From IMG/VR virus record IMGVR_UViG_3300000292_000161: a stretch of DNA of 17,698 nucleotides; one strand, written 5' to 3'. Of the stretch, positions 2,199 through 13,647 are shown piece by piece (the stretch's first letter is position 1; the number at the start of each line of letters is the position of its first letter). The position numbers and the translations under genes were made by a program. This stretch comes from a virus. Lineage: Duplodnaviria; Heunggongvirae; Uroviricota; Caudoviricetes. Under the pieces are notes generated by a model. The model did no database searches and had not been told where the DNA came from. It saw only the letters and a list, made by a program, of their open reading frames with translations.

Positions 2199-2886
2199 CT
2201 CCTTTGATTATGGTTAAATAGTCGAAATTTTCACCACTTCCCTTGTGGATATATTTACATATAAAAGGTAACTAGTCACTAACCAACACAAATCTTTTTG
2301 AAGACAGATGGGGGGTGTTGAACGGTTTTTAAATGATTTCTTTGATTTTTAACAGCAATAAGGAGCATTTTTAATGAAATTAGACGTTGATAATAACTTT
2401 TTGAGCAATCTTTACATATCATGGTAGCCTTCTATGCTGTTTTTCCAACTAAAAGATTGGCACATTTATCCGCTGGTAGTGGCGTTTTTTCGCCGCCAGC
2501 GCCTCTCTGGTTCCATTCCTTACATCTGTTCAAATTCAGCAACCCTTGCCGCGATCTTGCCGTTATCGAGAAGCTCTTTCGCTTTTCGGTTAATACTATC
2601 GGTCTTCATATTGCCAGCAGCATACGCCATCCGATAATTTCGATGCTACGCGCGCGTACTTGTCGCAAAATATCAGGCAAAGGCCAGATTCAGAAAGTCG
2701 TGATAACCACCAGCACAACATGAGAGGTCATGTAACGCGATTTATCACACCAGATACATGTGATTGGTGTACCCGCATAAAACATCGTCATAGCGCGTCC
2801 TGTGCGCATATACGCCGATAATCAACACATCACCACCACTCTGTCTCGTGTAGAGAACAGTTTCATGGTATCCCCCGCCATCGTGT

Positions 2887-2949
2887 GCGTACTGGTCGGA
2901 CGTGGTTGCAAAATTTTTGCAACTGATACCCCTCGCGCGCGTACTGGTC
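2887..2949. repeat. two direct GCGTACTGGTC 11-mers flanking a perfect 19-bp palindrome
   Basis: 11-mers at 2887-2897 and 2939-2949; palindrome GTTGCAAAA-T-TTTTGCAAC at 2905-2923. Related (CG)4-containing copies at 2647-2664 and 3013-3027. Confidence 0.6.
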
Positions 2950-3142
2950 ACGAAATTGGTGTTTTGCTGTGGCAGTGATATCAGAAAAATCTTCCTGTTT
3001 CACATAAAGCGGATATGCGCGTACTGTAACGGCCCCATCAACGGGGAGCGGATTTGAAATCCCGACCCAAGCTATGTACCAAATGCCATGTCTTGGATAT
3101 ATGATGATTGCCATTCTAAACAAAGCTAAAGGGAGGGTTGGT

Positions 3143-3499
3143 GTGAGGGGGCAGGCAGTTATAATTATTTTGTTGGGTTTAATTGTCGCAAAGTTATACC
3201 CGACTTTATCGATGGTGTTTTTTGCCATTATTGGCGCAGCCATCTTTACTTATATCATTAAACATACCGCCTTGTGGTTCTATAAAATTGATATAGTTCA
3301 GAAGTTTGTACGTCCTGTGTCGATGTTATTACTAGCATTAATACCAATTGGTGTTGCTTATGTAATTGATGTTTTTTACCCTTCGGACACTGAAAGGTGG
3401 TTGATAGTTTTGTATTGTTATATTGGTGTAGCTCTCTTTTGTGGATTTCATTGGTGTTTCGAAAAGATCAATGACTCTATTTCAAAGAATAAAGATTGA
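3143..3499 (+). CDS. small integral membrane protein (3-4 predicted TM helices), AT-rich
   Basis: ORF is open from 3074; most plausible start is GTG at 3143 with SD GGGAGGG at 3131-3137 (ATG alternatives at 3074/3101/3104). Highly hydrophobic; convergent with the 705-aa gene. Confidence 0.6.
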   Translation: MRGQAVIIILLGLIVAKLYPTLSMVFFAIIGAAIFTYIIKHTALWFYKIDIVQKFVRPVSMLLLALIPIGVAYVIDVFYPSDTERWLIVLYCYIGVALFCGFHWCFEKINDSISKNKD

Positions 3500-3513
3500 G
3501 GCCATCCGTGGCC
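3500..3513. terminator. short GC hairpin between convergent stop codons
   Basis: GGCCA-TCCG-TGGCC lies between the stop at 3497-3499 (+) and the stop at 3519-3521 (-). Stem is only 5 bp with no clear U-tract, so weak. Confidence 0.3.
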
Positions 3514-3518
3514 ATTCA

Positions 3519-5636
3519 CTAGTCATTATCTGGATCATTAGATAGCCAAGTAATGATGCCCAGTCTGGCGATGGTCCGTTTTTCCTGTTCAGGAAGAGAG
3601 TTAAAAAAACTCTTCCATTGAGGGGAGCGCCTGATACGTGAATCAACAATGTGCCCAGGCGCTTTTCCGTGTAGATTTTTTACTGCGCTCTGGAAGGCTG
3701 GCGAGGCAATTAATTTATCCGCAGCATCAGCCGCCCCTGCTCCACCAGCTAATCGAGCTTTACTCGCCAATCTTGCTCCAATATCAGCCCCAGCAATGGC
3801 TCCAAGCGATCCAAAATGAGCGCCTACCATCGTGCCTATTTTTTGAATGTGTTTTGCTGCTAGTTCGTATGGAGCTGTTACCCGATTAAATCTGTTTACA
3901 AACTCATTCAGCTTACCAGTAGATATTTCATGCGCTTTAGCATTTTTTATTGCTCTGGCAACTTTGTATACATCATATAGTCCGCTCATTGTTTCTTTTG
4001 GCAAATGTTCAGCCAAAGTCTTTAGCTGTCCACTGTGTTGCAAGTTTTGCCACCAATCTGCAAAGCCAGATGGATTAAAGTCGGCCCCACGCTTCCCAGA
4101 GGAAAGCATATCTCTTAATGCTGTTCCTACTAGCTCCCTTCGCAATGTTCTTGATGGAGTATTTTGCATAATCTCACGAAACCCTCTCGCATCACCTTTT
4201 GCCATAGATTGAAGAGAATTCGTTACTTTATACGCTATATCCCCATTAAGTGTTTTCCCGCGAAGATTTACCATTTGCCTTTCTAAGTTTTTTCTCATAG
4301 CTACAAGGCGTTGTGCGACTTCGAAATCTCGCAAGTATCCAGTATTGGATAAGACAGATTTTTGGTCTTCAGCTAAAGCTCCATATAGTCTTGATAGCGC
4401 TTCTTTATCAGCATCTTTGTATGGCCCCTGCTTTTTATTTAGGGCATCACCAACTAAACGCCTTTGCCTGTTTAAATTTGCATACGTTAGGATGCTATCT
4501 GGGCCGGGGTTTATTGCTGTAAAAACTCGCTTTTCTATTGGGTCAAGATTATCCCACCCTCCTAAATCATCAGCGATTTTTTCCAGCATAGTGCTTGTGT
4601 TATTTGCTTCGACTTTTGTTCTTGGTGATAGAGCGGAATCAACACGTTTATATAACTGATCACTACGGTTTTTTAGTGCTTCCATTCTACTATTTATCTG
4701 ATAAATATATTTTTCGCTCATAGCTAACGCATCTGGCGCACCAGCAACATCATCGATTATCTTGTCAGCACTAGAGGCTAATTCGCTTATTGCTTTATCT
4801 TCTTGAGCTTTTAACGCTGATCCTGTCCGTGACTTTAGGGCTTGCTCTACAGCTTGGTATTGCTCATTTCCTGATAAATGAGAAGGAAGAACTGAATCAA
4901 CATGAAGCCTATTTGCAGCCTCAACAATTTCTTTCTGAGGTTTTAGATCTAGCCCTTCAAGCGAAGAGGCAAGATTTGGGTTGCCTTGTGCAGATAACTT
5001 ACGAATTTTCTCTTCGGCAGGAGTAATCCCCTCAATATCTGGAATCGAAGAAACATTCTTCTTGGTTAATTTCCCAGCTATTTTATTAATTGCAGGGCCA
5101 GCAAGTTCGGCTACAGGGCCAGCCACAGCGCCAATAGCAGCGCCGGAAGCAACATCGCTATTTGTTCCATTGGCTACAATAGCCCCTTCTCCAGCACCAA
5201 GCCCTACGGCGGCAGCCAGTCTTGCCGCCCCTTTGGGAACCTGAGAAATAATCCCACCACCACTAACAAATGGCGCTGCTTGTCCAACGAACTCACCAAC
5301 ATCTTGTGCGGTTGATGGTTTTGCCGCTAACTTCTGCTGTAGAGACTGAATTGCGGCTTGCTCTTCTGGTGTCATATCCTGAAACAGGCCAACACCTTTA
5401 CCAACATCCATCAATCCACTGAGAACGCCATACATAAAACGGTCGAAACCGTTAGCATTATTAACAACATTTTCCTGTCTGGAATTTTCCTCTGGTGAAA
5501 CCAAAGGTGATTGCTGCTGTTCTGGTTGGGCATCAAGCACAAAACCATCAGGAAGCTGTGAACTATCAGGAAACTGTGAGTTATCAGGTTGTTCATCGAG
5601 CACAAAACCTTCCGGTAAGATTACATTTGCTGCCAT
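3519..5636 (-). CDS. hypothetical 705-aa protein, repeat-rich N-terminus, Gly/Ala-rich low-complexity tracts, C-terminal glycine-zipper-like segment
   Basis: ATG at 5636 with AGGAA 7 nt upstream; overlaps the upstream gene by 16 nt. N-terminal repeats LPEGFVLDEQP / LPDGFVLDAQP; C-terminal GAHFGSLGAIAGADIGARLA; no Walker or nuclease motifs seen. Confidence 0.8.
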   Translation of the reverse strand: MAANVILPEGFVLDEQPDNSQFPDSSQLPDGFVLDAQPEQQQSPLVSPEENSRQENVVNNANGFDRFMYGVLSGLMDVGKGVGLFQDMTPEEQAAIQSLQQKLAAKPSTAQDVGEFVGQAAPFVSGGGIISQVPKGAARLAAAVGLGAGEGAIVANGTNSDVASGAAIGAVAGPVAELAGPAINKIAGKLTKKNVSSIPDIEGITPAEEKIRKLSAQGNPNLASSLEGLDLKPQKEIVEAANRLHVDSVLPSHLSGNEQYQAVEQALKSRTGSALKAQEDKAISELASSADKIIDDVAGAPDALAMSEKYIYQINSRMEALKNRSDQLYKRVDSALSPRTKVEANNTSTMLEKIADDLGGWDNLDPIEKRVFTAINPGPDSILTYANLNRQRRLVGDALNKKQGPYKDADKEALSRLYGALAEDQKSVLSNTGYLRDFEVAQRLVAMRKNLERQMVNLRGKTLNGDIAYKVTNSLQSMAKGDARGFREIMQNTPSRTLRRELVGTALRDMLSSGKRGADFNPSGFADWWQNLQHSGQLKTLAEHLPKETMSGLYDVYKVARAIKNAKAHEISTGKLNEFVNRFNRVTAPYELAAKHIQKIGTMVGAHFGSLGAIAGADIGARLASKARLAGGAGAADAADKLIASPAFQSAVKNLHGKAPGHIVDSRIRRSPQWKSFFNSLPEQEKRTIARLGIITWLSNDPDND

Positions 5637-6964
5637 TTTCCGTTCCTGTAAATGATTTTCTGACCAGTTTTAGGGTTGGTTGCCGTTGCGCCTTCTGATA
5701 TTCCTCCGGTTGCCGCTTTTGCCTGTCCAGTGCCAGCCTGTGATGTAGGCTGCCCGGAAACATCGTCAAATAGCTTCGCTTTCCTTCTTTCAAGGCTTTT
5801 TCTTAGCCCCTGAGGAATAGTTTCTCCATATGTATCGAGATACTCGTCAACCTGCTGGTTAAACTGCTGCCCCATAGCATTGGCGTTGATTTTTGCGGCG
5901 TTAACAATGTTATCCTTTGCCTCCTGCGACAGGCCGTTTCCAGCATTAAGCTGGTCTATGTATCCTTTGATTTGTCCCCATATGCCATCAGACCGCATTA
6001 CCTGAACCTGTTCGCCTTCACGAACGACTGACTGCGGGTCAAGAGATTTCATGTAGTTGAAGATAATCCCAAGTTGGGCAGCGCCAGTATTTACCTTGCT
6101 AAGGGCTTGCAGAGAGTTTGCCGCCGCTCTGACAGAGTTATAATTTTTGCCAAAATTGGTAATGTCAGAATTTAATCCCTTAATTAAGTCTGCTGACGGC
6201 TTACCTTTTTGCCCCAGCTCCATTAGCTTCAATCCCATCTCATCTGAGTGAATTTGTGCTCGCTGAGCCCTGTCTAGTTGAGCGTTCTGGATATTTGCCC
6301 ATCCTCTCGCGTTCTCCATGTCAGCCTGACGCATACTTTCATCCAGTCGCCCTTGCTCAAGTCGACGACCTTCCATTTGATCTTTGATATCGAAATACTT
6401 CTCATGACCGAGAGAAAACAGCGCCAGATTACCTGCGAAATGCTGGAAGCCCTGCGGGTCATTAACCTGCATTTCAGCAATAGTTTCTGGAGGGATACCT
6501 AAACGACGCATCTCCTGCTCATTATCCATCATGAACCTGCCAAATGCGCCCTGACCAAGCGATGAGGCTACCTGTGCTTTGAGCGCCAGATTGCCATAAT
6601 CATCCCTTTGAGCATCATCGACATAACTCATCCCTTTACGGACTTCCTCAAACTCTTCTGGGAATGCTGTAATAAGATTACGCATCTGCTCCCTGTCACC
6701 GGACGCATAAGCATCTGCATAACCTTTCTGGAATGCCGCTTTACGTTCCTGCTGTTGCTGCTGCTTATAAATGTCAGCAACTCCAGCCAGACCACGAAGA
6801 CCTGTCAGAGCAACGTTATTTGCACCTGAGCGAGCCAGTTCATTGTTTTCGCGGATCAGACCAAGCGTTGCGTTAATGTCGCTTGCCTTTGGCGCATTCT
6901 CATTTTGCGCACCGATGCCAGCCAGAAAACCACCAGAATTAATACCCTGTTGCCACGTAGCCAT
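5621..6964 (-). CDS. hypothetical 447-451-aa Gln-rich, probably coiled-coil protein
   Basis: ATG at 6964, 4 nt after the TAA of the 57-aa gene (in-frame GTG at 6976 is the alternative start). Contains poly-Q KQQQQQERK and many Q/E/R heptad-like stretches; no catalytic motif recognised. Confidence 0.8.
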   Translation of the reverse strand: MATWQQGINSGGFLAGIGAQNENAPKASDINATLGLIRENNELARSGANNVALTGLRGLAGVADIYKQQQQQERKAAFQKGYADAYASGDREQMRNLITAFPEEFEEVRKGMSYVDDAQRDDYGNLALKAQVASSLGQGAFGRFMMDNEQEMRRLGIPPETIAEMQVNDPQGFQHFAGNLALFSLGHEKYFDIKDQMEGRRLEQGRLDESMRQADMENARGWANIQNAQLDRAQRAQIHSDEMGLKLMELGQKGKPSADLIKGLNSDITNFGKNYNSVRAAANSLQALSKVNTGAAQLGIIFNYMKSLDPQSVVREGEQVQVMRSDGIWGQIKGYIDQLNAGNGLSQEAKDNIVNAAKINANAMGQQFNQQVDEYLDTYGETIPQGLRKSLERRKAKLFDDVSGQPTSQAGTGQAKAATGGISEGATATNPKTGQKIIYRNGKWQQM

Positions 6965-6968
6965 AAAT

Positions 6969-7142
6969 TTACCCACGTCCAGTTAAAGTGTAAGCCAGCG
7001 CCTTATCCATTAATCCCCGAGCAATTTCGTGGATCGTTGGCGCAACTCCTACCTCTGATTTTTTACGCTGCTCCTCCTGAATTTTCTTTATCGCTTCCAT
7101 TTGCTTCTCACTTATCAATACTGGCTTTACTGAAATAGCCAT
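6969..7142 (-). CDS. 57-aa putative DNA-binding regulator (possibly ribbon-helix-helix), first gene of the cargo operon
   Basis: The 100-aa ORF trimmed to the ATG at 7142, preceded by AAGGGGGG. Sequence MAISVKPVLISEKQMEAIKKIQEE..TIHEIARGLMDKAL; function inferred from size and position only. Confidence 0.5.
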   Translation of the reverse strand: MAISVKPVLISEKQMEAIKKIQEEQRKKSEVGVAPTIHEIARGLMDKALAYTLTGRG

Positions 7143-7236
7143 AACGCCCCCCTTAGAACTGTATAAAACAACAGTCATTATAGTTTCATAAAACGCAACA
7201 TTCATCATTGTGATTGCAAAATATGAAACAAATAGC
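7143..7236 (-). promoter_or_regulatory. candidate promoter of the 57/451/705 operon
   Basis: Perfect -10 TATAAT on the minus strand (plus-strand ATTATA at 7177-7182), about 35 nt upstream of the ATG at 7142. The -35 is poor; sits just downstream of an intrinsic terminator. Confidence 0.35.
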
Positions 7237-7271
7237 ACAAAAAAATGCCACCGTTCAGTAGCTGGTGGCAT
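7237..7271 (-). terminator. rho-independent terminator for leftward transcription
   Basis: Minus-strand RNA would form AUGCCACC-(11-nt loop)-GGUGGCAU followed by a U7 tract (plus-strand A7 at 7238-7244). Confidence 0.6.
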
Positions 7272-7636
7272 CGTTCTGTATGTCAGGTTTTGACAGTTTT
7301 TTTATGGACTCTAAAAACTATATTTATGGAGTCGCATTACTCTTCACGGCAGGCGCTTTCCAGTTCTGCCCTTGCTTCTGGCTCCATTGGTAATTTGATT
7401 CGCGATCAGCTATGCGGATGGTTTGCTGAACAGGCATAACAACATCTCAGAGGCTATTTTTTGAACTACGAAAATTTCGTAGTGCTCACCTTCAAAAACG
7501 TCACGCCCTTGTACACTGGATTTTACAAAAGTCTCGTAAAACTCTTTGCTGTTCTGGGCTATGTGCCAAACCGCAGCGAATACCTCCGTCTGCCAGATGA
7601 GCAAAACATACCTTATAAAGAAAATCGCTGTTTTTG

Positions 7637-7740
7637 CTGTACCACCTGTACCACCATGTCACAAACCCTTGTGTGGCGCGGCCTGCAGGTGGTACAGGTG
7701 GGTAAAAATGACCTCTCCCCACCTGTACAGACCTGTACCA
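7637..7740. repeat. iteron cluster 2 (GGTGGTACAGGT family, both orientations), crr-like
   Basis: CTGTACCACCTGTACCACC at 7637-7655, GGTGGTACAGGTGGGT at 7688-7703, CACCTGTACAGACCTGTACCA at 7719-7740. Confidence 0.75.
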
Positions 7741-8879: not shown

Positions 8880-11307
8880 TTAAAAAACATCATAACCCCC
8901 CATACCGATCAGACGGGCAAACGCAGCCTGTAGAACTCCGACCTCTGGTAGTTCGTAGAACACGCCATTCCCTCGGTCTGGTCTTCCATGCTTCACCAGC
9001 CCCATTTGTGCAAGTGATTTACCCAGTAGTGATCTGGCAGCTGGTTCTTTAAGCTTTTCCCCACGCTCAAGCGACCACGCTACAAACCGACTAACCATAT
9101 CCTTTGCAAACAAACGGACTTCGCCATTAAACGGAGGTTCATTGATTAGCTCGCCATAAAGAAACAATTCAACGCCAGACAGCCCCAGCAAGATTTCTTC
9201 ACGTAAGGCATCGGTCTGTGGCGCTCGTTGAGGGTCAAAACCTGAGAGATCCACCCCTTTAAGATGCCAAAGCAACTTTGCGGCACCGCCATCATTAAGC
9301 CAACTGTACAGCCGATCAAAATACTCCCGGCTCTGTGCTTTTTCAGGAGATGGCTCAAGCACGAGATAGCGGCGCTCTCTTATCCCTGCCTGTAATACCT
9401 GTGTGCTGTTACTGGCAAATATCAACCGGGCAAAATTCGGCATTGGTTCAGCATCAATTCCCTTGCGCTCAAGGTTAAACGTCGGTTCGCTAATAATCGC
9501 TTTAAGTCTGTCAGCTTCAGACGGCTTGTGGATCGTCACTTCGTCAGCAAATACCAGTAGCTTGTTAGCAAGTATTGAATTGAAGCGCCCTGAAATATGT
9601 CCCGCCCCGTTAATGTGGGCGGCGTACTGCCCCAGTATTTGCAGCAGCGGTTTAACCGTTGTGCCTTTCCCTGTGCCCGGGACAGATTTCATCACGATTG
9701 CCACGGACGGTTTTTCATCAGGCTTTTGGATAATGTGCGCCATCCACTGGATAAGATATTGGTATGCCTCTTCATTACCGGCACAGACAACCTGCAACAG
9801 GTGATTAAGGTATACCGTGCAATCTCCTTCAATTGGTTCCAGTGCCAGCCCCTCATACAGATTAAAAACATCGTCAGGGCATTTGTCTGGTACTGGATAA
9901 AATCCTACGCCTCCTGGCTTGTAGTTCTTCCCACTCCATGACAGCCACGCCGATCCCGCCAGCTTTCTGGCGACTCTCGGTTTATGATGAAAATAATGCT
10001 GAAATTGTGATAAATCCTCGAAAACGTGCGATACACCGCCGGTTTGAGAAGGCTTTAGCGACACCACCTTGTGTTTCCCGCCGATGGTGACATGCGTAAA
10101 CGTCCGGTTGATTTCTTCGAGGACAGCAATTTCATCATCGCTTAACACCTCGCCAGAACTGATCTCATTCAGCGCCCCGACTGACTGTTTGTGATTTTTC
10201 ACCTGCGCCCCTTTCCCCCGTGGCTGGTACATCGAATCTTTAAATGCTGCTGTGGCTGCCGCCAGCCCGTGTTGTTGGTGATAGTCGTTCCAGTCGGCTT
10301 TATAGTCAGTCGGTGGCAGAGACACCCAGCCAGCTACGGAAATAGCGGCCCTCTCTGCGGCATCTTTCCCCGTGTTGATCCCTCCACTTTCGGAGTTTCC
10401 TTGCTGGTGATCGTTATCTGCGGCAATGATGATTTGTGCCTGTGGATATGTTCTGCGCATGACTTCCGCTACTGGCAACAGGTTGCCAGCGTCGATTGCT
10501 GCCACTGTCATTGCGTCAGGGCGAATTAAATGGCACGACAGGGCGGTAGCCACCCCCTCAGCAATTATGNNNNNNNNNNNNNNNNNNNNNNNNNNNNNNN
10601 NNNNNNNNNNNNNNNNNNNNNNNNNNNNNNNNNNNNNNNNNNNNNNNNNNNNNNNNNNNNNNCTGTGCGTTTATGGCGTGATATGCCCCTCGCTTTGCTG
10701 AACCTGTCAGGAGTCTTTTTTCACCATGTGAGGTAATAGTCTGTGCTGCTGTAACTGCGCCGGATTTATCCACCAGCGCCAGCAACAGAGATCCATCGGG
10801 CAACACAGGGAATGTAAAATCACCTACCCCTTTCGCAACCAGATAATCAGATTTGCCGTTTACAGCCTTTCTGCGCATGTCATCAAACTGACGGGAAAAC
10901 GTATCCCGTCTTTGTTGTTCGTCCTTCTCTGCCCTTTTCAGGCGCTCCTGTTCGCGTCGCTGGCGCTCGGTTTCCAGTTGTTCCCGTTTCTGGCTGGTGG
11001 CTTCTGGTGTTTCCGTTGTCCGGTAATCAATACCCAGAACATCAGCGGCAAGCAGCGCCGCCTCTGTTGTGTCGCAGTTATTTACGCGTTTAATTAAATC
11101 CAGCCCATCACCAGCGCCGCACTGATTACAGATGAAGCTACCGCGCCCGTTGTCATCGAACCGGAATCGGTCTTTGCCCCCACATGCAGGGCAGGGAGCA
11201 TGACGGCGCGGAGAGTCAGGGACATTTATGTTCAGGCAGCCCAGCACATGAGGCCAGTTGTTTTCAGACGCACTGATAACCTGACGGATAAGATCAATGT
11301 TTCGCAT
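8880..11307 (-). CDS. P4-type DNA primase/helicase (Zn-ribbon + TOPRIM + D5-like P-loop NTPase), interrupted by an assembly gap
   Basis: N-terminal piece (10558..11307) has CPACGG...CNQCG zinc ribbon; C-terminal piece (8880..10553) has IIIAADND (TOPRIM-like) and P-loop VPGTGKGTT. ATG at 11307 with SD ACGGGGG. Frame across the gap is uninformative. Confidence 0.85.
10570..10662. other. assembly gap (93 N) inside the primase gene
   Basis: Run of n characters read directly from the sequence. Confidence 0.99.
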
Positions 11308-12985: not shown

Positions 12986-13647
12986 GTGGCAGCCTCCTTC
13001 AGATAGCAGGTTACGCTACCACCGGAAACGCCAATTTCGCTGGTGGTAGCCCAGACAGGGTTGGCGTAACCGGCTCTGAAGGATACCGGCGCTTCCGAAG
13101 AAGCCCCCGCCTGAGCCACCATTGATTGACAAAGGCGCTGGATTATACACCAACGCCCAAAAAATGGGTGAGTCAGACCTACGACATAAAAAAAGACGCT
13201 CGGCGCGTCATATGTCGCCTTCAGAATTTTCAGGACGCCAATCCCGGCACCCGTTTTATGAGGTGCCTTATAACCATAAACCGTGTTGCCGCATAACGGC
13301 AAGCTCTTTTTTATGGACTCCGAAAACTCACTATTGGAAGAACCAGAAGCACAGTACATCGCGCTCATTTCGTTAACGTCACGCGCGTGGACGAAGGTTT
13401 TTGTGGAGTCACTACACGAGCAGAGAAAGCCATCTACGACCAGAAATTCTCTGGCATAGCCGCTGACCTTCTCAACGCTAACACCATCGACCGTAATTTC
13501 TGACATAGTTAAGGCATCCGCTCCTACCACCAGCAAATGATAAACTTTGCTTGTATCTGCTGTATTAATGTCTGACTTTGCTGTCATATTGCTGGATTTT
13601 GGCGACATACCAGCCAGTGAAAATGTCTTCTTCTGGACGGGTATCAT
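12986..13647 (-). CDS. hypothetical protein, start well supported, 3-prime end undetermined
   Basis: ATG at 13647 with SD GGAGGT and ATGA overlap with the upstream gene. Coding-like to about 13010, but the frame has no stop until 12580, so a frameshift or sequence error is possible. Confidence 0.4.

Follow-up and report, generated by a model that had tools for sequence, protein, structure and literature searches.

The DNA analyzed here (the window, 17,698 nucleotides; IMG/VR virus record IMGVR_UViG_3300000292_000161) contains a compact module of four genes. Three of these genes form an operon on the minus strand, and the fourth lies on the plus strand and converges on them (Table 1). An earlier note, made from the sequence alone, had put this module forward as an undescribed system. 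However, the two large proteins of the operon are confidently homologous to gp20 and gp16, the ejection proteins of phage P22, and homology to known virion proteins is what the note itself had named as evidence against its proposal. Because of this homology, the claim of an undescribed system was removed. As judged by protein homology, the module is borrowed phage DNA-delivery machinery, which consists of known families and resides in a published family of phage satellites.

Table 1. Features of the module and its borders, with positions in the window
Feature	Position	Strand	Basis or remark
Conserved segment without a called gene, plus convergent-gene leader; forms the left edge of the swapped cassette	2458..3147		nucleotide comparison
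Open reading frame as listed, 141 aa	3074..3499	+	
Predicted 4-helix inner-membrane protein in the sieA slot, 118 aa	3143..3499	+	hydrophobic helix prediction
Short hairpin GGCCA-TCCG-TGGCC between the two convergent stop codons	3500..3513		sequence reading
gp16-type DNA transfer (ejection) protein, 705 aa, Kapi1/L011 subtype (also the frame as listed)	3519..5636	-	phrog_6704, phrog_770
P22 gp20-type ejection protein, 447 aa	5621..6964	-	Pfam PF16928, phrog_917
Open reading frame as listed, 451 aa	5621..6976	-	
57-aa backbone protein heading the cargo slot	6969..7142	-	GGGGGG Shine-Dalgarno; matches RefSeq WP_001018522.1
Open reading frame as listed, 100 aa	6969..7271	-	
TATAAT -10 hexamer	7177..7182	-	sequence reading
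Inverted repeat GTTTCATA/TATGAAAC flanking the -10 hexamer	7183..7190, 7222..7229		repeat I10
Terminator-like hairpin (GCCACC...GGTGGC) and T-run, upstream of the module	7237..7262 (hairpin arms 7262-7247)	-	terminator scan, inverted repeat I2

The window represents an island of approximately 17.7 kb between dinD and yicC in Escherichia coli, and an identical copy is present in the RefSeq-annotated strain E. coli SF-166. Pfam matches and annotation identified a tyrosine integrase, an AlpA-family regulator, an AntA antirepressor, an 'Ash' region, a Zn-ribbon/Toprim/DUF5906 primase, the module, an M78 peptidase cluster, and PerC. The same survey of the window found no capsid, tail, or lysis genes in the island. 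An integrase, AlpA, and primase in the absence of these genes, in a size class of about 18-20 kb, are the features of a phage-inducible chromosomal island (PICI), and the gene content bears out the previous view of the context as an integrase/AlpA/primase satellite rather than a phage. In E. coli MP1, excision of the PICI EcCIMP1 requires the presence of the P22-like phage Kapi1, which also transduces it (Pick et al. 2025, PMC11773190). The island backbone is homologous to that of EcCIMP1 (L002), with nucleotide identities of 93% at window positions 6994-7545 and 96% at 2556-3068. From these sequence matches, the window is an EcCIMP1-like satellite of this published family, integrated between dinD and yicC. 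The ejection module lies inside the island, with the primase on one side and PerC on the other.

We are confident, from sequence matches, that the second gene of the operon encodes a homologue of P22 gp20. The 447-aa protein matched Pfam PF16928 Inj_translocase ('DNA/protein translocase of phage P22 injectosome') over residues 16-223 (2.5e-73; 246.8 bits, cut-off 29.7) and phrog_917 (4e-132). It is 75% identical to gp20 of phage Kapi1 (Kapi1_057) over its full length and 54% identical to P22 gp20 over residues 1-212, and its first 27 residues are the same as those of P22 gp20. The protein has a conserved N-terminal region of approximately 200 aa, and its C-terminal half is exchanged as a cassette; the break lies at window position 6366. 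Glutamine accounts for 9.8% of the residues and includes a QQQQQ run, as the earlier note had described.

The 705-aa protein is placed with similar confidence, on profile and pairwise matches, in the gp16 'DNA transfer protein' family as a P22-type ejection homologue. It matched phrog_6704 along its entire length (7e-175) and, over residues 113-654, phrog_770 ('DNA transfer protein'; 9e-51); P22 gp16 itself matched phrog_770 with an E-value of 2e-266. Its identity was 41% to Kapi1_058, the protein at the gene 16 position of Kapi1, over the full length and 61% to gp16 of the P22-like phage contig L011. No direct BLAST match to P22 gp16 was found, and the profile of the 705-aa subtype does not reach P22 gp16; we therefore regard this protein as a divergent subtype of a mosaic family. 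It had no Pfam match at E ≤ 0.1, and none is on record for the 61%-identical L011 protein, although the Pfam copy searched may not include PF26808. No relative of the gp20-type or gp16-type protein was present in the PDB sequence set. The RefSeq accessions of these two proteins are WP_000246976.1 and WP_000729825.1. The repeat-rich and Gly/Ala-rich character attributed to the 705-aa protein is real (alanine plus glycine, 21%; a duplicated N-terminal LP(E/D)GFVLD.QP motif), and the guess that the two large products resemble phage pilot or ejection proteins was correct, both being homologous to P22 ejection proteins.

All four open reading frames listed in the earlier note exist, and the length of 705 aa holds. 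However, comparisons of the sequence and of RefSeq entries indicate that the '100-aa' product is likely 57 aa and the '451-aa' product likely 447 aa. The 100-aa frame runs across the terminator and the promoter, and the likely start of the gp20-type gene is the ATG at 6964, 4 nt past the TAA of the small gene. This gap and the 16-nt overlap between the gp20 and gp16 genes (5621-5636) are both present, as expected from the tight coupling previously proposed, and the identical overlap and order are found in Kapi1_057/Kapi1_058. An intrinsic terminator had also been claimed; the hairpin and T-run are there, and some 500 E. coli genomes that have the small gene keep them at this position. However, the hairpin alone is weak evidence because terminator-like sites in the region (6 observed) did not exceed the shuffle expectation (5.2). 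Similarly, the operon has the -10 hexamer with which it had been credited, but no acceptable -35 hexamer was found for it and the promoter scan did not call the site.

The small gene that heads the operon belongs to the backbone of these islands. Its 57-aa product is 87% identical at the amino acid level to a 53-aa protein of EcCIMP1, and the family (53-61 aa) is spread across Enterobacterales. The AlphaFold model (pLDDT 74) consists of an extended segment followed by two helices, and the sole PDB match in a fold search was the ribbon-helix-helix domain of ParD (E 8.9). No Pfam match was found. Based on the model, the protein may be a ribbon-helix-helix-like regulator; the label of small regulator given in the earlier note is putative. 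A relationship to Arc or Mnt was not supported, as hhalign against the Arc and Mnt profiles found nothing.

Upstream of the module is a non-coding stretch of 470 bp that separates it from a 245-aa gene. We found no obvious resemblance in this region to the P22 P-late region in terms of a helper late-promoter, qut, or pac signal, and blastn of the region against phages gave trivial matches of 40-110 nt only. At 7637-7740, the stretch contains six or more copies of CTGTACCAC/GGTACAGGT-type repeats, which occur in both orientations, with 14-nt perfect inverted arms at 7642-7655 and 7688-7701. This cluster is a candidate for the replication origin of the island or for a regulator binding array. 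Two copies of TTTATGGA(C/G)TC, spaced by 22 nt, are located at 7301-7333, just upstream (minus strand) of the terminator hairpin.

The fourth gene is open from 3074 or 3104. We consider the GTG at 3143 to be the most likely start, giving 118 aa, because a GGGAGGG ribosome-binding site precedes it, relatives begin at the equivalent residue, and the PK5 copy has a 2-nt deletion just upstream. The earlier description of a convergent protein with 3-4 transmembrane segments about 20 bp away is accurate; 3-4 hydrophobic helices are predicted, and 19 nt separate the end of this gene from the stop codon of the gene for the 705-aa protein. The short hairpin between the two stop codons was not called by the terminator scan.

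The location of this gene corresponds to that of sieA. SieA genes have been defined as situated between genes 16 and 9 (PMC10883804), and P22 sieA is convergent to gene 16 and follows it by 22 nt. Three P22-like phage contigs (L011, L034, and L035) encode relatives of the membrane protein in a convergent arrangement with gp16-type genes, and the slot is neighbored there by Arc/Mnt-like genes and an antirepressor (L011), a tailspike gene and an integrase (L034), or Arc and pRha (L035). In the sister island L028 of E. coli 2014C-3057, the same slot holds a true SieA homologue (204 aa; 29% identity to P22 SieA, E 5e-6) with a RYPGEA motif. Elsewhere, the slot is taken by other envelope proteins: EcCIMP1 has a lipoprotein, Serratia a 91-aa protein with a single membrane pass, and Kapi1 proteins with signal peptides. 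The EcCIMP1 lipoprotein (L002 14632-15330; 232 aa, lipobox LLAGC) is encoded right after the gp16 gene and has a non-significant Pfam match to TraT (E 0.09). It is a candidate for the source of the unexplained superinfection immunity of EcCIMP1.

A common origin of the membrane protein with SieA was considered and rejected. BLAST revealed no similarity to P22 SieA or to SieA types A-C, the FxRYPxEAxxFNK motif was not present, and tblastn against 50,697 phage records returned no relatives. A profile search of 1.84 billion proteins recovered 17 small relatives (cluster representatives) and no SieA-like protein. The structure model was poor (pLDDT 57), and a fold search with it gave no link to SieA, the model being too weak to inform. 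In our reading, the protein is a predicted positional and topological analogue of SieA outside the SieA family, since the slot position and the multi-pass topology match while sequence similarity is missing. Its role as a partner of the operon, as previously suggested, is plausible given its place in the sieA slot; however, a role in bacteriocin immunity found no support.

Comparisons with the islands L026 and L027 delimited the unit that is exchanged. Nucleotide identity to the window is 97-98% from upstream of the small gene to 6366, a stretch that takes in the first ~200 aa of gp20, and resumes at about 3146-3205 leftwards, through a 0.6-kb segment without a called gene. Between these conserved flanks, L026 and L027 have a different gp20 C-terminal half, gp16 gene, and convergent-gene body, with a distant relationship or none to the counterparts in the window. 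Since L026 and L027 diverge from the window only between the flanks, the swapped unit consists of the C-terminal half of gp20, gp16, and the gene in the sieA slot. Window positions 5116-6382 are 89% identical to phage Kapi1 at the nucleotide level, and positions 3677-5482 are 66% identical to the phage contig L011. Genes 14 and 7 and sieA left no trace in the window by tblastn.

The conserved left flank (2458-3147) is 90-98% identical across islands with differing cassettes (L026, L027, L028, L006, and EcCIMP1), and its last ~90 nt form a shared leader ahead of different convergent genes, which encode membrane or periplasmic proteins. Hidden genes or RNAs were sought in this flank, but neither Rfam nor Pfam gave a match. 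Possible identities are a shared promoter/leader, a pseudogene, or a cis site such as pac.

The module is conserved as a unit, in agreement with the earlier expectation. Among 5426 complete E. coli genomes, 86 contain the exact cassette of the window and 501 (9%) contain the small gene. In roughly half of the latter, the small gene leads directly into gp20 (the two-gene class), and the remainder mostly belong to the four-gene class. Differences from the 98%-identical PK5 copy amounted to 24.5 synonymous and 3.5 non-synonymous in gp20 (ratio of non-synonymous to synonymous rates, dN/dS, 0.04) and to 8 synonymous and 7 non-synonymous in gp16 (dN/dS 0.26). The gp20 and gp16 genes are under purifying selection. 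In L005, a contig of a JGI metagenome, P22-like genes from coat to gene 16 are joined to an island-type flank and an AlpA gene, and its gp16 and membrane genes are 99.7 and 100% identical, respectively, to those of the island L006. This contig represents either a very recent exchange between phage and island or an assembly chimera. Because of its island-type flank and this possible chimerism, we did not rely on L005 as a phage carrying the membrane (TM130) gene.

The same slot was compared across genera. Envelope-crossing DNA-delivery virion proteins occupied it in 11 of 12 architectures (the window, L026, and L028 in E. coli together with the genera sampled). These proteins were of at least four unrelated types in six genera and were always encoded right after the conserved small gene. 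The architecture of the window recurs in Serratia, where gp20 and an SLT-domain gp16 come after the small gene, with a membrane gene convergent to them. A four-gene P22 set follows the small gene in Leclercia adecarboxylata and in an Escherichia species, and internal virion proteins of another podophage type (phrog_418, 1044, 3003, and 684) follow it in Leclercia sp. EMC7 and E. coli LR-33. Tape-measure proteins take this place in Erwinia persicina (1049 aa), in Klebsiella quasipneumoniae (671 aa, with an SLT domain, then a Dit-like protein), and, as an N-terminal fragment, in Serratia silvae; a 605-aa protein of Raoultella has both tape-measure and transglycosylase similarity. On balance, we favor the explanation that the module occupies a virion-protein cargo slot of an EcCIMP1-like satellite and that its cassette was captured from P22-like (Lederbergvirus) phages.

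The module had been assigned to the usual accessory or defense position of such islands; however, the slot held virion DNA-delivery genes in nearly all of the architectures described above, and recognizable defense cargo (Abi, RnlAB, and a capP-like M78 peptidase) lies further left, past the conserved 0.6-kb segment. Positions 869-2198 encode an M78 (ImmA/IrrE) peptidase matching the PADLOC capP model (4.9e-25), then a 125-aa protein that has two hydrophobic helices at its C-terminal end, and a divergent 147-aa protein. Sister islands carry Abi or RnlAB at the matching place, which is probably the real defense hotspot of the island. A PerC-family regulator (Pfam 2.6e-33) is encoded at 322-609 on the minus strand; the PerC-like protein of EcCIMP1 reportedly represses LEE (locus of enterocyte effacement) expression in Citrobacter rodentium. 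On the other side of the module, the primase gene is split into open reading frames at 8880-10553 and 10558-11307 by masked bases (N) at ~10553-10650, and is a single gene for a 783-aa DUF5906 protein in SF-166. Two Rfam matches above the gathering score, C4 antisense RNA (13039-13126, minus strand, 79.9 bits) and isrK (13189-13266, minus strand, 67.8 bits), fall within the open reading frame of a 355-aa 'ash family protein'. Because of these matches inside the frame, we suggest that 13039-13266 is an antisense-RNA immunity region of the P1/P4 style and that the 355-aa frame is probably over-called.

Regarding function, we lean towards a model in which the satellite supplies its own DNA-entry proteins together with an entry-exclusion gene. 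During lytic growth of a P22-like helper, the satellite would express gp20 and gp16. These would be loaded into helper procapsids, alongside or in place of the helper copies, while gp14 and gp7 would be supplied by the helper. In the next infection, the satellite gp20 and gp16 would build the conduit through the periplasm and inner membrane for DNA entry. The mutations by which P22 overcomes SieA were located in the C-terminal regions of both gp16 and gp20 (PMC10883804). Because the proteins carried by the satellite are those in which these mutations map, the satellite may thereby specify how its particles get past gatekeepers of entry, for example SieA in a lysogenic recipient. The membrane protein would be made from the island in its integrated state and may act as a SieA-like block to DNA entry by P22-like phages. 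The sequence comparisons show the protein identities, synteny, cassette boundaries, conservation, and purifying selection, whereas we infer incorporation into virions, evasion of exclusion, and the exclusion activity of the membrane protein.

Several points weigh against this model. The island does not carry gp14 and gp7, and thus would depend on compatibility with the helper copies. P22 ejection proteins enter procapsids ahead of DNA packaging; therefore, selective loading into satellite particles is not obviously possible. P22 is excluded by its own SieA, and the linkage of gene 16 to sieA need not mean a cognate resistant pair. The searches described above did not connect the membrane protein with SieA. 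The promoter of the module is incomplete, and gp16 is broken in some islands, by a frameshift in L027 and by an IS1203 insertion in L032. Furthermore, E. coli 30COLEC and P21_SE1 carry a 223-aa protein without a phage-family match in the slot, the sole exception found.

Two other explanations, both of which we regard as unlikely, deserve more than a mention. In the first, the module acts as a defense within the cell: gp20 and gp16 made in the host, with the membrane protein, would poison or decoy the ejectosome of an incoming P22-like phage or spoil helper virions, and packaging would not be needed. EcCIMP1 adds to the immunity that Kapi1 lysogens have to superinfection with Kapi1, and PADLOC and DefenseFinder detected no known defense system in it (PMC11773190). 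The module of the window has its own promoter-like element behind a terminator, and satellites commonly interfere with helper assembly, as exemplified by Tai and Rta. However, helper titers were not reduced in the EcCIMP1 study (PMC11773190), and the incoming conduit is put together from the periplasmic side, yet gp20 and gp16 lack signal peptides. Moreover, the N-terminal ~200 aa of gp20 are nearly identical to those of phages and cassettes reach 89% nucleotide identity to functional phage, which fits working virion parts and not decoys. None of the four module proteins matched a PADLOC model family of known anti-phage defense systems.

The second explanation, to which we attach a similarly low probability, regards the ejection genes as passive baggage gained by recombination with P22-like prophages through shared sequence, with no role for the satellite. 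The mosaic structure with phage-identical stretches, the pseudogenized copies, and the one slot cargo that is not a delivery protein are consistent with this view. However, the genes of the window are intact, translationally coupled, and under purifying selection, and baggage of this type would not readily account for unrelated classes of delivery proteins recurring behind the same small gene in different genera or for the frequency of that gene in complete E. coli genomes.

A decayed P22-like prophage remnant lying beside the island, outside the mobile element, is very improbable. The genes are of phage origin and the EcCIMP1 region was first called an incomplete prophage; however, the genes of the window lie inside the island, between primase and PerC, and dinD and yicC border the whole island; further P22 late genes are absent from the window, where tblastn for gp14, gp7, and sieA was negative; and the sequenced excision product of EcCIMP1 (19,963 bp, junction sequenced) includes the homologous ejection-protein genes (PMC11773190). 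The proposal in the earlier note of a bacteriocin-like, membrane-active toxin pair with a membrane immunity protein is hardly credible: the Gly/Ala-rich, membrane-active-looking composition of the 705-aa protein next to a membrane protein is accounted for by ejection-protein homology, export, lysis, and receptor-binding parts are missing, and PADLOC and NCBIfam gave no match for the module proteins (the sole NCBIfam match, to the membrane protein, was below the cut-off, at 23.4 bits versus 35).

Satellites are known to alter capsid size and packaging, and tampering with the tail core has been known in Vibrio satellites since 2026. If coliform satellites do bring their own ejection proteins, DNA entry would be a further point of satellite control. 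The model would also offer a concrete candidate for the unexplained superinfection immunity of EcCIMP1, provide natural allele cassettes with which to test SieA-type entry exclusion and its evasion, and widen the known set of DNA-entry blockers by a small membrane protein family. We tentatively extend the model, in a form that we regard as possible rather than probable, to satellites that are widespread in Enterobacterales. These would have a dedicated late-gene slot, marked by the 53-61-aa protein, with delivery proteins matched to the helper (P22-type ejection, other podophage internal virion, or tape-measure proteins), which would give chimeric virions and DNA entry specified by the satellite; the P22-type unit would be a cassette of entry and exclusion genes that satellites and helpers trade, and the 118-aa protein would represent a fourth, unrelated class of SieA-like excluders.

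In the literature searched, we found no report of an exchange of ejection proteins and the sieA slot as one cassette, of a two-gene variant with a new membrane-protein family, or of a cross-genus pattern of DNA-delivery cargo in the slot. The closest known relative is EcCIMP1, which shares AlpA, AntA, Ash, primase, and PerC with the window and in which the small gene also heads a P22-type ejection module. In contrast to the window, this module has four genes, namely 14 (DUF2824), 7, 20, and one for a gp16 of 906 aa that includes a lytic transglycosylase domain, and the lipoprotein gene comes next. The EcCIMP1 gp20 is only 25% identical to that of the window, and EcCIMP1 is integrated at tRNA-Thr. 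Its authors labeled the genes 'DNA transfer' and suggested a packaging role (PMC11773190). Helper-dependent excision and transduction have been demonstrated for EcCIMP1 only, whereas the island of the window is known from its sequence.

The ejection proteins of P22 and Kapi1 belong to the same families as those of the window (PF16928/phrog_917 for gp20 and phrog_770/phrog_6704 for gp16) and have the same gene order. However, the window carries them on a satellite, lacks the partner genes 14 and 7, and has a gp16 of the Kapi1/L011 subtype. P22 SieA (types A-C; Leavitt et al. 2024, PMC10883804) and the membrane protein of the window are both small, multi-pass inner-membrane proteins encoded convergently ~20 nt after gene 16. 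In contrast to SieA, the protein of the window belongs to a tiny separate family without sequence similarity to it, and a role in exclusion is predicted by analogy.

Vibrio PLE satellites encode their own tape-measure protein (TMP), chaperone, and baseplate hub, which results in chimeric tails (Nature 2026, PMC12987554). PLE11 thereby escapes its own TMP-targeting defense protein, Rta (PMC12987554). Both this study and a 2025 preprint (PMC12822802) stated that such genes were unreported in other satellites, and the former noted predicted tmp genes in some cf-PICIs. PLE differs from the window in having a myovirus helper and in using tail proteins, not capsid-internal ejection proteins, without homology between the two; furthermore, incorporation was established by experiment for PLE, and the evidence for the window is its sequence. 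The likeness lies in the arrangement: in PLE, a component of the delivery core encoded by the satellite replaces that of the helper and is linked to an anti-phage protein aimed at the same component, and the ejection genes of the window and their neighbor in the sieA slot may represent a parallel case.

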